The notes: generated by a model from the letters alone, not told the origin. A DNA stretch of 64,000 bases from Candidatus Ozemobacteraceae bacterium (GCA_035388825.1 DAOOQQ010000019.1:225-64224), one strand, 5' to 3'; positions 8,745 through 50,255 are shown, counted from the stretch's first letter. Translations and numbers: made by a program.

Positions 8745-8810
8745 GGAGCATCTGCGGCAACCGAAGAGATCGATCCGCAGATGCCGCAGATGACGCAGAT
8801 GACGCAGATT
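8745..8810. repeat. MITE-like repeat, module B (CGCAGATGA tandem units) in hairpin form
   Basis: gcatctgcgg...ccgcagatgc forms a 10-bp perfect inverted repeat; followed by the tandem units gccgcagatgacgcagatgacgcagat. Confidence 0.6.
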
Positions 8811-8942
8811 AACGGAATGTATCGACTATTGAAGTTGGCACTATATTTGGCCGCGTCGTCGGCCTGACAATTGTGCCGTAGGGGCGGATCGTGATCCGCC
8901 CGCGTCACCCAGGGACGTGATATCCGGTGTGTTGAAAGACGG

Positions 8943-9022
8943 CGCACCACGGAGTCACAGAGACACAGAGCAAAAGGGTGAACAAGTCTGAGAAATTCTG
9001 TGTCTCGGTGACTCGGTGGTGC
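8943..9022. repeat. MITE-like repeat, module A (CACAGAGA tandem units) hairpin
   Basis: gcaccacggagtcacagagacacagag ... ctgtgtctcggtgactcggtggtgc inverted repeat; same module as the copies at 26859, 29651 and 49801. Confidence 0.6.
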
Positions 9023-9073
9023 GTTTCTTCCGGGGTCGCGCGGGGGCGAGAGATTGTGGTATTGTCTAAGACC

Positions 9074-9574
9074 ATGGCTCGGCAGAGGGACGGATTCCGG
9101 CGTCGGGCGGTCACCCTGCTCGAGGTGCTGATCGCCCTGACGATCCTGTCAACCGTTCTGCTTCCCGTCGGCATGTTCATGGTCGAGTATCTGCGCGGCA
9201 GCAGCGAACTGGGGGAGTACCACCAGGTCATGAATATCCTCGAGGAAAAAATGGAAACCGCCCTGGCGCTTCCGTTCGACGCCCTTCCGGTCGGCCGTTC
9301 GAAAAACGTCCGCCTCGGCCATGATGCCGATGAAACCGGAAAACGGAGCGTCACACTGGATCTGAGACCTGTCCAGGTCGGTGTCGAGGAGGTCGGTTTC
9401 GAGCTCGAGGTCGAACCCGTTCCGCTCGAGTTTTCGGCTGTCGCCGACCCCGACACGGGGCGCATGGAGCGCACCCGCCTCGAGGCCTCCTACAAGCGGC
9501 TCATCCTGCGTGCCGGCTGGGGAAGCCGCTCCCGGCATAACCTCGATCTCGTCGCGTACAAGGCGGACCTGTGA
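9074..9574 (+). CDS. Prepilin-type N-terminal cleavage/methylation domain protein (pseudopilin-like)
   Basis: N-terminus MARQRDGFRRRA|VTLLEVLIALTIL has the class-III signal hallmark (Glu at +5 after the predicted cleavage site, hydrophobic helix); SD upstream; start taken at the internal ATG 9074. Confidence 0.55.
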   Translation: MARQRDGFRRRAVTLLEVLIALTILSTVLLPVGMFMVEYLRGSSELGEYHQVMNILEEKMETALALPFDALPVGRSKNVRLGHDADETGKRSVTLDLRPVQVGVEEVGFELEVEPVPLEFSAVADPDTGRMERTRLEASYKRLILRAGWGSRSRHNLDLVAYKADL

Positions 9575-10029
9575 ACATGTTCGAACGCCGCGGAATCGCG
9601 ATTCCCATCGTGCTTGGCATCATCCTGTGCTTCGCCGTCTGGGTCGGCTCGCTGTCCTGGACGATGTCGAACAGCCGGAGCCGCTTCACGCAGACCTTCA
9701 AGCTCCGACGGGCCTACTTCATGGCCCGTTCGGGGTTGCAGCATTTTTTTCTCAAGATGAAAGTCATGCAGCGCCAGCTGCCCGAGACGATGGCGGTCCT
9801 CGATGGGGCGCCGGCCGCGAACTGGGCCTCGCTCGCAAACTCGTTCGTCGAGGATATCGTCATTCCCCAGGAATCCCCCGCGAGCTATGCGCTTTCCTAC
9901 GGCATCGGCAGCTTCACGATCGGCACCCGGGATCTCGACAAGGGCGAGATGACGATCGAGATCGTCGCCGAGGGAAAAGTGGACGGCGTGGGCGAGAGCA
10001 TCAGACGTATTTTCCGCGTGACCCGGTAA
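9571..10029 (+). CDS. Membrane-anchored minor-pilin-like protein
   Basis: GTG start overlapping the upstream stop (GTGA); single N-terminal TM helix IAIPIVLGIILCFAVWV but no Glu+5; size and context suggest a pilus or secretin-associated minor component. Confidence 0.4.
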   Translation: MNMFERRGIAIPIVLGIILCFAVWVGSLSWTMSNSRSRFTQTFKLRRAYFMARSGLQHFFLKMKVMQRQLPETMAVLDGAPAANWASLANSFVEDIVIPQESPASYALSYGIGSFTIGTRDLDKGEMTIEIVAEGKVDGVGESIRRIFRVTR

Positions 10030-10057
10030 TGGGCACGACATCTCAGGAGGTATAACC

Positions 10058-47605: not shown

Positions 47606-48904
47606 ATGTCGATCATTGAAGCCATTCAGGCACGTGAGATTCTGGACAGCCGCGGGAACCCGACCATCGAGGTGGAAGTGCTGCTCGAGAGCGGCGCGTA
47701 TGGCGTTGCCGCCGTCCCGTCCGGCGCGTCGACCGGCGAGCACGAAGCCGTCGAGCTGCGCGACGGTGACAAGAAGCGCTACCTGGGCAAGGGCGTCCTC
47801 AAGGCCGTCAAGAACGTGAACGACACGATCGCCAAGGAGCTCGAAGGCATGGATGCCCTCGAGCAGCAGATCATCGACCACGCTCTCATCGCCCTCGACG
47901 GCACCGACAACAAGGGCAAACTCGGCGCCAACGCGATCCTCGGCGTCTCCCTCGCCGTCGCCAAGGCTGCGGCCGAATTCTCCGGCCTGCCGCTGTACCG
48001 CTACATCGGCGGCACCAAGTCCTGCGTCCTTCCCGTTCCGATGATGAACATCCTCAACGGCGGCGCCCATGCCGACAACAACGTCGATTTCCAGGAGTTC
48101 ATGGTCATGCCCGCCGGCGCCAAGCGCTTCTCCGACGCGCTGCGCATGGGGGTCGAGACCTTCCATGCGCTCAAGGCCGTTCTCAAGGCCAAGGGCTACA
48201 ACACCGCCGTCGGCGATGAGGGCGGCTTCGCCCCGAACCTCAAGTCCAACGACGAAGCGATCGAAGTTATATTGACCGCTATTGAAAAGGCCGGTTACAA
48301 GGCCGGCTCCGACATCTTCATCGCCCTCGACCCGGCCGCATCCGAGTTCTACGATGCCGACAAGAAGGTCTACGTGTTCAAGAAGTCCGACAAGTCTCAG
48401 CGCAAGCCCCACGAGATGGCTGACTACTGGCTCGACTGGACGAAGAAATACCCGATCATCTCGATCGAGGACGGCATGGCCGAAGACGATTGGGACGGCT
48501 GGAAATACCTGACCGACAAGAATGCCGGCCGCGTGCAGCTCGTCGGCGACGATCTGTTCGTCACCAACGTGAAGCGCCTCGAGATGGGCATCGAGAAGGG
48601 CGTCGCCAACTCGGTTCTCATCAAGCTGAACCAGATCGGCACCCTGACCGAGACGATCGAGACGATCGAGATGGCCGAACGCGCCCGCTACACCTCGGTC
48701 GTGTCGCACCGCTCCGGTGAAACCGAAGACACCACCCTGGCCGACCTCGCCGTCGCCATGAACGCCGGCCAGATCAAGACCGGCTCGGCCTCGCGCACCG
48801 ACCGCATCGCGAAATACAACCGCCTCCTCAAGATCGAGGACGAGCTGGGCGAGAATGCCCGCTTCCTCGGCCTGAAGGGCTTCTACAACATCAACAAGCG
48901 CTGA
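47606..48904 (+). CDS. eno: Enolase
   Basis: [25 protein letters not shown]...; SD AGGAGG 6 nt upstream of ATG 47606; full-length 432 aa. Confidence 0.95.
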
Positions 48905-48917
48905 TCGCCAGAAAAGC

Positions 48918-48958
48918 GAACGCCCCGGCACCCTCCGTGGTCGCCGGGGCGTTCTTGT
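48918..48958 (+). terminator. Hairpin terminator after eno
   Basis: gaacgccccggc ... gccggggcgttc 12-bp perfect stem with a 13-nt loop. Confidence 0.45.
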
Positions 48959-49040
48959 ACATCCTATATTCCTGCTGCCACCCAAGGACTCGTGATCATT
49001 TCAACCCTGATCCGCCCAATGCAGCAAGGGGAAGAACGAT

Positions 49041-49712
49041 TCAGTAGGTGCGATCGAACGAGTCGGCAGGGGTGCCGGCCGGCATCGGGCCGGAAAGAAG
49101 CGGCACGGCGGGGGCGGAGGGCATCGAAGGGGCCGGCGCCGGCGTGTCGAGGGAACTCATGTGATCGAGTAGCCGCTGCTTGATCTGATCCGCTTTCAGG
49201 CGGGAATCGGGAGTCATGCCGGCGCTCTGGGCACGCGTCAGCAGGCGCTCCATCTTCATGTCGGCATCCCCGGGAAGCGGCTTCGAGGCCGCAATGCCCC
49301 CGTCACCGAGCGGGGTGAGCTGGACCTGCATCGGCGGAGCCGGCGGCATCCCGCCCGGAATCATCGGGAACGGTGTGACCACGTCGGGGGCCGGAACGGC
49401 CACCTGCGGCGGATTCTCGGCCAACTGCTTCCGGTGCGCCGCCATCGCCAGCTCCCAGGTGTAGACGTCCGGCTCGTAGATGAGCTGCTGCTGGAGCGTC
49501 ATGCCGTGAACGGCCTTCCGCTTCTCTTTCACGTAAACATCGTGGTTCGATTTTGGATAGATCGAGCTTTTGATCAGATGTTCACTGAAAAACTCCCTCT
49601 CGAGAACCTGCCGCGTCGGCCCGTCGGTCACGGCCCGCGCCGGGGCGGTTGACCAGAGAATACAGATCGGCAGCGCCAGGACGGCGACCGGGATGGCGTA
49701 TTTGAGACGCAT
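49041..49712 (-). CDS. Secreted Pro/Ala-rich protein of unknown function
   Basis: Signal peptide MRLKYAIPVAVLALPICILWSTAPARA; 223 aa. Confidence 0.45.
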   Translation of the reverse strand: MRLKYAIPVAVLALPICILWSTAPARAVTDGPTRQVLEREFFSEHLIKSSIYPKSNHDVYVKEKRKAVHGMTLQQQLIYEPDVYTWELAMAAHRKQLAENPPQVAVPAPDVVTPFPMIPGGMPPAPPMQVQLTPLGDGGIAASKPLPGDADMKMERLLTRAQSAGMTPDSRLKADQIKQRLLDHMSSLDTPAPAPSMPSAPAVPLLSGPMPAGTPADSFDRTY

Positions 49713-49800
49713 TTTCGACCTCCATGTGTACGAGAATCCTGCGACGAGGCAAGAATGTCTGTACCGATCGCACCTTTGTCAAGGACAAAAAAAAGGGGAC

Positions 49801-50255
49801 GAACCACAGAGTCACCGAGACACAGAGATGAGAAGATTCACCACGAAGCCACGAAGACACAAAGCGTGGTTTCTTTTGTATTCTCCAACTTCGTGTCGTG
49901 GTGTCCTGGCGGAGAAAGAGCCTCTGCGCCTCTGTGTCTCTGCGGTGAAGGATTCTTCGAATGTTCGTGGTTCGTTCTCTTTTGTGTCTTGGTGCCTGGT
50001 ATGTGGGTTTCGTCAAAAGAACCGATCCACAGATGACACAGATGACGCAGATGAAATCCTGAGCGTCTTCAACCATGGAGTTTGCGGCGCATACTGGATA
50101 CAAGGGGGGGCCAGGCGTTCGTTCCTCTCTGGTTTTTCATCTGCGTTCATCTGCCCTCCATCTGCGGATGCGTTCTTGAATCCGAGGGAAATTTCAACGG
50201 AGTATCTTCGTGGTGAAAGAGCCTCTGTGCCTCTGTGTCTCTGTGGTGAAGCGTT
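49801..50255. repeat. MITE-like composite repeat element, largest copy (A, A-variant palindrome, A', B, B', A')
   Basis: gaaccacagagtcaccgagacacagag; caccacgaagccacgaag/cttcgtgtcgtggtg; cctctgcgcctctgtgtctctgcggtgaag; gatccacagatgacacagatgacgcagatgaa; tttttcatctgcgttcatctgccctccatctgcggatgc; cctctgtgcctctgtgtctctgtggtgaagcgttc. Confidence 0.65.

Follow-up and report, generated by a model that had tools for sequence, protein, structure and literature searches.

We examined a 64,000-nt stretch of DNA (hereafter the window; GCA_035388825.1 DAOOQQ010000019.1:225-64224) from a member of the Candidatus Riflebacteria, family Ozemobacteraceae, which carries palindromic repeats at five intergenic loci between positions 8745 and 50255. 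On balance we think it probable that these repeats belong to a non-autonomous family of small palindromic elements that lack coding capacity and are copied as units, and we refer to them as tandem-unit hairpins. A module of this family is made of two inverted arms, each of three head-to-tail units, with pairing that reaches 2-5 bp past the arms and a centre that varies. Whole modules would be copied into new spacer sites without target-site duplication, often landing beside or inside other hairpins and so producing nested structures and mosaics like those of bacterial interspersed mosaic elements (BIMEs).

Reading of the loci and a scan for the units placed two modules, A and B, in direct and inverted orientation at all five loci where the original prediction, made from the sequence, had described hairpin-forming copies. 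Module A consists of three head-to-tail CACAGAGR units with a period of 8, and module B of three GCAGATGAN units with a period of 9, or of 10-11 in one arm type; unit B is unit A with one base added (CACAGA[T]GA, the extra base in brackets). The largest copy contains a third unit, C, with the sequence CACGAAGR, a period of 8 and the forms CACGAAG, CACAAAG and CACCAAG, and there a C hairpin is nested within an A hairpin at 49842-49905. The B and C arms in the window have three units, as do those of A. When up to 3 mismatches were allowed, the pattern CACAGAGNCACAGAG matched the window 26 times against 4.4 +/- 2.3 times in shuffled sequence, and the pattern GCAGATGNNGCAGATG also matched 26 times, against 7.9 +/- 2.3; for neither pattern did any of 100 dinucleotide-preserving shuffles reach 26. 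The same arrays and arm pairs were recovered by Tandem Repeats Finder and by a repeat finder.

The B arm sits in a longer conserved element, in which ctggtatgtgggtttcgtcaaaagaaccGATCC is followed by a direct B arm, a loop, an inverted B arm and GGATgcgttcttgaatccgagggaaatttcaacggagtat, often with A arms adjoining. The exact 21-mer of the B arm was found in 29 stretches of metagenome contigs, including several contigs from activated sludge and digesters, and on at least eight other large contigs of metagenome Ga0116157, the window strain's own. Fifteen copies of the B element from different contigs align over approximately 212 nt, non-repetitive parts included; the arms do not vary among them, and for many copies identity exceeds 95%. 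The full-length copy in the window, at 49996-50207 (+), matches the 15-copy consensus at 100% over 212 nt, with arms at 50023-50054 and 50136-50166. A short form at 13019-13154 (-), located between convergent genes, keeps its arms (13059-13086 and 13117-13141) and has lost a consensus centre of about 65 nt. The right part of the element, without its left arm, occupies 26968-27033 (+) and corresponds to consensus positions 131-197. The remaining module B piece, at 8745-8810 (+), has an inverted unit at 8749-8755 followed by four direct GCAGATGAN units at 8777-8809; its segment 8771-8809 matches the left arm of the element (consensus positions 38-69). The whole piece at 8745-8810 folds weakly (z -1.8).

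The 3' halves of the copies beginning at 26859 and 49801, which had been described as near-identical, are 91% identical over 67 nt (26968-27033 vs 50116-50182) and 96% identical over 26 nt (27049-27074 vs 50231-50256). The A hairpins of this genome have a loop motif in common, seen as 84% complementarity over 68 nt between 26852-26919 and 29663-29730. The shared element of approximately 212 nt and the shared A loop motif indicate that the loci hold copies of elements, rather than arrays grown independently at each site. The B arm on other contigs of the same metagenome bears out the original prediction of a dispersed, non-coding, modular palindromic family resembling BIMEs and the repetitive extragenic palindromic (REP) sequences.

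The largest composite, 455 nt at 49801-50255, was gained relative to related genomes. Three relatives, in which a 223-aa protein encoded beside the composite is 73-76% identical, keep the order HSP20 gene, HSP20 gene, spacer, 223-aa gene, but the spacer between the HSP20 pair and the 223-aa gene is 90-180 nt long in these relatives and 646 nt in the window. The relatives' spacer is made up of two features, a GC-rich hairpin and, after it, a conserved TTGACA...TACA(G/C)A block. The composite falls exactly between these two features and is absent from all three relatives. In the window one border is the GC-rich hairpin GGGGGCGGGTTCGAAACCCGCCCCC at 50313-50340 (-), just past the HSP20 stop codon, which by its position looks like a terminator stem, and the other is a TTGACA-N17-TACAGA block at 49745-49790 (-), upstream of the 223-aa gene and kept in all three relatives (L407-L409 alignment), which would be a promoter; scans for terminators and promoters, respectively, did not flag them. 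A closer relative, L410, whose agmatinase is 92% identical, has neither the composite found downstream of rplL in the window nor the 537-aa gene adjacent to it. The copies of the B arm on other contigs contradict a purely local duplication. In its spacer between a LarE-like gene and the agmatinase gene L410 carries an A hairpin at the same site as the window's 29651-29722, with diverged arms and a 33-nt loop that cannot be aligned with the window's 17-nt loop.

The anatomy of module A was determined from 130 complete A hairpins, 119-120 of which remained after duplicates were removed. The arm consensus is ttNAC-CACAGAGR-CACAGAGR-CACAGAG, with arms of 23-27 nt. C1, C3, A6 and G7 are invariant in every unit, which is partly owed to how the arms were selected, while the two arms vary independently of each other at the R positions (8 and 16) and at position 4 of every unit. 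Just beyond the arms, two positions are paired in 88-92% of hairpins, compared with 51-64% for shuffled pairs, with A-T, G-C and C-G alternating at the second; the excess complementarity extends over 5-9 nt beyond the arms and continues in a locus-specific manner. Loops range from 6 to 327 nt (median 44) and are common within a lineage and unrelated between lineages. Partner arms were not always recognisable: for 113 arms none was found within 400 nt.

Exactly three units were present in 310 of 326 A arms (95%) and in 170 of 213 partner arms, so that the arm is a defined module and not a free microsatellite. This count bears on a rather improbable alternative, that the repeats are mutational by-products formed in place, by slippage and then inversion through template switching at stalled forks or broken hairpin tips, with neither mobility nor an enzyme. 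Heptameric long simple sequence repeats (LSSR) are over-represented in many bacteria and have been put down to polymerase slippage (Mrazek 2007, as summarised in PMC4679880 and PMC4692102), and hypervariable loops, nested palindromes and arms that differ from each other at their variable positions would all be at home in such a process. Slippage predicts a spread of unit numbers, however, and the wide copy-number variation that it drives in LSSR and in the short tandemly repeated repetitive (STRR) sequences was not seen in the A arms. Nor would formation in place account for an element of about 212 nt that is near-identical at many dispersed sites, its non-repetitive centre and flanks included, or for the recurrence of one 24-nt arm in many phyla, described below.

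Two loci outside the window show what else the A unit can do. At L083:81-190 at least 13 CACAGAGT units stand in a plain tandem row without an inverted partner, which shows that the unit can also expand in the manner of a microsatellite, though it rarely does so. At L049:2816-3073 two inverted A arms bracket a 212-nt centre with an open reading frame (ORF) of about 60 codons and CxxC...CxxC spacing, so A arms can bracket a short coding sequence.

Inverted arms, small size, lack of coding capacity, high copy number and intergenic location are also the marks of classical MITEs (miniature inverted-repeat transposable elements), that is, deletion derivatives of an insertion sequence with a DDE transposase, whose parent would lie elsewhere in the genome and whose terminal inverted repeats would be the arms. 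We regard this as very improbable, and the term MITE-like in the original prediction, taken strictly, does not fit. Direct repeats 3-6 nt long, looked for at offsets of 0-15 around 119 non-redundant A hairpins, were only as frequent as expected from shuffled sequence, so that the proposed search for target-site duplications turned up none. The inverted arms answer to the terminal inverted repeats of a classical MITE, but they are 23-27-nt internal tandem repeats and the pairing runs on outside them in a locus-specific way. No transposase was found in the public gene calls of the 64-kb window or enriched near the copies, and 12 widely spaced inverted arm pairs did not enclose a gene in common. 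The lack of target-site duplication, taken with occurrence in every orientation relative to genes, fits copying at the DNA level through hairpins: B elements lie in all four gene configurations and in every orientation, divergent spacers included.

The simple copies form very stable hairpins, as had been proposed. RNA folding gave -54 kcal/mol for the A hairpin at 8943-9022 (z -7.95; with DNA parameters z -6.57), -57 kcal/mol for the A hairpin at 29651-29722 (z -9.28) and -53.7 kcal/mol for the B hairpin at 13049-13145 (z -6.42); across these simple copies the RNA z-scores run from -6.4 to -9.3 and those with DNA parameters from -6.6 to -7.4. The large composite blocks have no single well-defined fold, and their folds are no more stable than those of shuffles (z -1.3 to -1.8). 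A consensus fold of the 15 B copies recovered the arm helices with a covariation term of about 0, the arms being invariant; this is expected of young copies and speaks neither for nor against a structural role. Several familiar kinds of element were considered for the hairpins and rejected. At gathering score no Rfam model matched the repeats, and at permissive thresholds only miRNA-precursor models matched, far under their cut-offs, a generic effect of long hairpins. None of the A or B hairpins was picked up when the loci were scanned for promoters and terminators; the lone terminator-scan site, 26860-26876, is a 6-pair stem inside an A arm, and the count of such sites is under the shuffle mean. 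Intrinsic terminators were discarded since no U-tract follows the stems and loops are 17-120 nt long, a T-run being present only after the 29651-29722 copy. A CRISPR array does not agree with contiguous units, three per array, in inverted pairs, and a quadruplex does not agree with a sequence that is not G-rich. A match of CTCTGTGY x n to the pause consensus of RNA polymerase (G-10, Y-1, G+1) was considered and dropped, as no orientation bias supported it.

Module A is not confined to this genome, contrary to the original prediction of a family belonging to it. The pattern CACAGAGNCACNGAGNCACAGAG, with 20 fixed bases, matched 119 stretches of IMG/VR contigs with GC contents from 31% to 71%, about half of them as +/- pairs 40-120 nt apart. 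Control patterns of matched composition, made by shuffling the units, had 10 matches in one case and 6 in the other and no pairs, so that the A arm is 12-20 times as frequent as such control units. Reference genomes (one per species) gave at least 120 A matches in about ten phyla. Acidobacteriota form the largest group among the matches listed, which also include Planctomycetota, Verrucomicrobiota, Gemmatimonadota, Alpha- and Betaproteobacteria (Pseudomonadota), Spirochaetota, Bacillota, Chloroflexota, Actinomycetota and one archaeal metagenome-assembled genome (MAG); matches in odd taxa may reflect MAG contamination. The proteobacterial carriers include the isolates Magnetospirillum sulfuroxidans J10, Pelomonas caseinilytica P7, Propionivibrio limicola and Undibacterium, and the A arm is also present on plasmids of Nostoc, Calothrix, Anabaena and Scytonema. 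A collection of isolated phages gave no match to the A arm.

The other arm types are found beyond the host group as well. B hairpins of the form ATCC(GCAGATGAC)3...(GTCATCTGC)3GGAT occur in unrelated high-GC viral contigs. There the plain B pattern was abandoned because it was swamped by Q/M-rich in-frame coding repeats and gave a hairpin in only 1 of the 120 matches listed; the pattern with the ATCC flank performed better. Arrays of (CATCTGCGTT)x3 were located on contigs that look cyanobacterial by GC content and by a GCGATCGC motif.

Comparison of loci with homologous flanks yielded five informative cases: either the arms persisted while loops were replaced, or one unit type stood in the place of another. 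L088 and L029 both keep an A hairpin with arms identical at about 20 of 23 positions and loops that cannot be aligned, between flanks that are only 70-82% identical. At one site L095 has an A hairpin and L341 a B hairpin; at another, which separates a stop codon from the start codon that follows, an A hairpin is present in L013 and L056 and a hairpin of GGTAATT units in L067; and where L079 has an A hairpin, L004 has one of the GGGGAGA type. At a single position in a dnaE2-like ORF of three Acidobacteria, L175 carries an A hairpin, L204 three GTGGCCA units and L222 a hairpin of GAGTACC units with a centre of about 100 codons, and all three inserts are read through in frame (L175:6180-7090, L204:1040-1920 (-) and L222:4230-5130 (-)); L222 has a second in-frame A hairpin further downstream. 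In one high-GC viral lineage (GC 0.68-0.70; L004, L006, L042, L052, L068, L079, L103, L420, L429) arms of the A, B and GGGGAGA types share a core type, a GC-rich central palindrome, gcgcttcgcgcgaagcgc or gcgccgctgcgcggcgc, and there the arm types look like interchangeable shells around a common core.

Loci selected for the A arm were also rich in other hairpins of this construction. In about 1.9 Mb of A-selected sequence (L001-L239) we counted 68 hairpins whose arms are built of other, mostly heptameric, units (for example at L011:2640-3860, L005:2470-2680, L036:3840-4040 and L196:5980-6230); control loci, which were not A-selected, had 2 in 1.16 Mb, one of these being a B hairpin. The units involved include GGGAACC, GGATTTT, GTGGCTA, GTGGGGC, CCAATGA, CGAATGA, GGTAATT, GGTCGTT and AGTTCTC, and their hairpins are often nested in A arms. 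The CCAATGA unit of L036, rotated and reverse-complemented, is TTGGTCA, which we take to be the cyanobacterial STRR2 unit.

These orthologous sites raise a possibility that we consider unlikely: that the hairpins are cis elements selected by the host, either to stabilise, process or terminate transcripts, as RNase III-type substrates or by REP-like 3'-end protection, or as inverted arrays of binding sites for a conserved protein that would read three units per arm. A hairpin kept at an orthologous site while its loop is replaced is what such selection would give, unlike unit types filling the same site in relatives look as if a hairpin were needed there, and a fixed unit count and an arm sequence conserved across phyla are in keeping with it. 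Gene context points the same way for A: of 79 A hairpins that could be classified with a crude frame-based caller, 68 have co-directional genes on either side, 8 have convergent ones and only 3 divergent ones. The analogous Xanthomonas repeats, moreover, are for the most part transcribed (PMC4692102). Against host selection, the stems carry no sense-strand RNA signature, with 33 G.U against 55 A.C mismatches; B elements adopt every orientation, divergent spacers included; neither a U-tract nor a terminator call accompanies the stems; and the B alignment is without covariation. Close relatives without the composites keep the same flanking genes, and some copies are translated in frame within an ORF.

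To return to copying of modules as units, this would require an activity in trans by which either the arm sequence or the hairpin in single-stranded DNA is recognised, on the model of REP sequences and their hairpin-forming doublets (REPINs) with REP-associated tyrosine transposases (RAYTs). The triple-unit arm would be the recognised and conserved part. Either the activity or phage-borne elements would move between phyla, and such movement would account for the same 24-nt arm in about ten phyla. What the elements do to their host, if anything, would probably not go beyond the formation of stable DNA or RNA hairpins between transcription units.

Several observations weigh against copying of this kind. 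The public gene calls of the window contain no candidate enzyme, and the 12 widely spaced inverted arm pairs have no ORF in common. At A-selected loci, neighbouring ORFs formed clusters of phage portal, capsid and terminase proteins only and no transposase cluster, the prevalence of phage structural genes being a result of how the viral loci were chosen. The variable positions of the two arms pair in only about 60% of cases and are mostly uncompensated; the two arms of a hairpin look as if drawn separately from the unit consensus, and not as if one had been copied from the other. Unlike unit types at one orthologous site could reflect turnover in place rather than repeated insertion. Finally, a 24-nt arm that is identical from phylum to phylum does not resemble REP families, which differ between species.

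A more far-reaching proposal, which we hold to be doubtful, is that (CACAGAGR)x3, (GCAGATGAC)x3 and the heptamer triplets are sequences either recognised or produced by a machinery that spreads horizontally through about ten phyla and their phages. Such a machinery might be a hairpin-specific single-strand DNA transposase that leaves no target-site duplication. It might otherwise be an enzyme that, where a hairpin tip is broken, adds templated short repeats to the two 3' ends; this would directly yield inverted arrays, arms that vary independently, nested growth and hypervariable centres. That the count is fixed at three may reflect a trimeric reader. If the proposal is correct, the STRR and LSSR repeats of cyanobacteria and Xanthomonas would be products of the same process.

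The remaining A and C features of the window are as follows, with gene context taken from public gene calls on identical contigs. Locus 1, between secA and a prepilin-type gene, contains a complete A hairpin at 8943-9022 (arms 8948-8970 and 8996-9018, loop 25 nt); locus 2 is the short B element between convergent genes. At locus 3, past the rplL hairpin and ahead of the convergent 537-aa gene, an A 5' arm at 26859-26912 (+) comprises the arm itself (26865-26887), the loop motif and one inverted unit (26905-26911), and an A 3' arm at 27036-27075 (+) comprises an arm (27041-27063) and the shared flank GGTGAAGCGTTC; the arms 26865-26887 and 27041-27063 could pair over this longer range. Locus 4, the spacer between the divergent LarE-like and agmatinase genes, has a complete A hairpin at 29651-29722 (arms 29655-29677 and 29695-29717, loop 17 nt) and a 16-nt junction fragment at 29734-29749 (-) that is identical to the junction of C arm and B element at 49988-50003. 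At locus 5, between the HSP20 pair and the 223-aa gene, an A hairpin at 49801-49944 (arms 49805-49827 and 49922-49944) encloses the C hairpin (arms 49842-49864 and 49888-49905). Degenerate C-type units, CTTTTGTG and TCTTGGTG, follow at 49960-50003 (+) and abut the left end of the full-length B element. Beyond that element is an A 3' arm at 50218-50256 (+), with its arm at 50223-50245 and the flank GGTGAAGCGTTC, which duplicates 49901-49960 at 85% over 60 nt.

All copies in the window are intergenic and encode no transposase, in agreement with the original prediction. The small ORFs that had been set aside as artefacts do look like artefacts, since no gene is called within the repeats and the ORFs that cross them matched no Pfam family. 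Homologous proteins carry source names that place the organism in Candidatus Riflebacteria, family Ozemobacteraceae. NCBI assembly GCA_029565415.1 and three JGI metagenomes from digesters or sludge contain the same strain; the contigs from these four sources are identical and offered no informative polymorphism.

Some other features of the region were recorded alongside the repeats. A different GC-rich hairpin, GGGGCGGG-loop-CCCGCCCC, had 5 matches against 0.43 expected, with sites at 8705-8725, 8882-8901, 23136-23152 and 50316-50336. Its sites lie just 3' of secA, tuf and HSP20 and adjoin repeat loci 1 and 5, and the motif also flanks B elements on contigs L391 and L394. Its position suggests that it is probably a terminator stem; a simple terminator scan did not flag it. 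The 537-aa protein predicted at 27126-28739 (-), which adjoins the composite downstream of rplL, matched no Pfam family. In L410 the LarE-like gene directly follows rplL, giving a gene-sized indel beside the window repeats. A standard cluster of tRNA-Thr/Tyr/Thr, tuf, tRNA-Trp, rpmG, secE, nusG and rplKAJL occupies 21639-23506, and in this genome rplL is not followed by rpoB and rpoC. A cobalamin riboswitch at 35577-35762 (+; Rfam RF00174, 76.5 bits) precedes an operon for a periplasmic-binding protein and an ABC/FecCD transporter, an ordinary arrangement. Three tandem repeats of about 360 nt at 42513-43509, 61-73% identical, lie inside the gene of a TQ-domain protein (PF18202) of 1761 aa; this repetitive gene for a surface protein has no relation to the hairpin repeats.

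Short intergenic tandem-unit repeats (STRR, LSSR, the Xanthomonas heptamers and TAACTGA) have been on record since 1990 without a mechanism or function; the cyanobacterial STRR heptamers were reportedly described by Mazel in that year. The window provides a well-defined case, with a fixed arm length, arm types that are interchangeable at a site and a clear gain relative to relatives. Conservation of one arm sequence in Riflebacteria, Acidobacteria, Proteobacteria, cyanobacterial plasmids and phage-like contigs makes the old question testable. There are practical consequences too: the repeats create spurious ORFs, can sit in frame inside genes and are likely break points in metagenome assemblies.

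Among known systems, the BOX elements of Streptococcus pneumoniae and the ERIC, Correia and RUP elements are likewise intergenic and built of modular boxes, one of which can be tandemly repeated, that form stable hairpins in hundreds of copies. They differ in being confined to one genus or species, and several have target-site duplications and a known or suspected parent insertion sequence. The small dispersed repeats (SDR) of Nostoc, reportedly described by Elhai and colleagues in 2008, are said to be very small mobile hairpin elements that nest in each other and in tandem heptamers and have no known enzyme; they are reportedly 21-27 nt long and cyanobacterial, with arms that are not triple tandem units. 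Rickettsia palindromic elements (RPE) are palindromic repeats that can lie within genes and be translated in frame, as are the inserts in the dnaE2-like ORF of the three Acidobacteria; a sequence relationship is not expected, and the window copies are all intergenic.

A closer parallel in construction is provided by the heptamer repeats. The GGGAATC heptamers of Xanthomonas number approximately 185 repeats per genome, with arrays of 2-26 units and 70-75 cases in which two convergent arrays can form a stem-loop; 65-70% lie between co-directional and 7-8% between divergent genes, they are unlinked to insertion sequences, and their Nostoc counterpart is GGGGAYT (Rehm et al. 2015, PMC4692102). TAACTGA repeats are common to Beggiatoaceae, Cyanobacteria and Bacteroidetes, "but no mechanism is evident" (MacGregor 2015, PMC4679880). 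The original prediction that the family had not been described therefore holds in part: a search of the literature available for searching found no bacterial paper with the literal A sequence, but the general class has been published (PMC4692102, PMC4679880). Tandem-unit hairpins share with these repeats the head-to-tail intergenic units, the convergent pairs of arrays and the occurrence of one unit in unrelated phyla, and heptamer hairpins abound at A-hairpin loci. They differ in having units of 8-9 nt and a count fixed at three, in that their modules hold conserved non-repetitive parts, such as the 212-nt B element, in not being G-rich and in the broad distribution of the A arm.

In behaviour the tandem-unit hairpins most resemble REP sequences, BIMEs and REPINs. 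In both groups short extragenic palindromic units occur in high copy number, form inverted-doublet hairpins and mosaics, have neither target-site duplications nor coding capacity, and lie mostly between co-directional or convergent genes. REP sequences, BIMEs and REPINs of Proteobacteria are mobilised by RAYT, a Y1 transposase like that of IS200/IS605; the 64-kb window and the genome fragments yielded no RAYT gene, and no search of the reference genomes was aimed at RAYT. REP sequences are species-specific, whereas the A arm is common to many phyla. The resemblance stops short of the sequence on two points: the arm of the window family is made of three tandem 8-9-nt units and is not itself palindromic, and it carries no GTAG/GGAG head.

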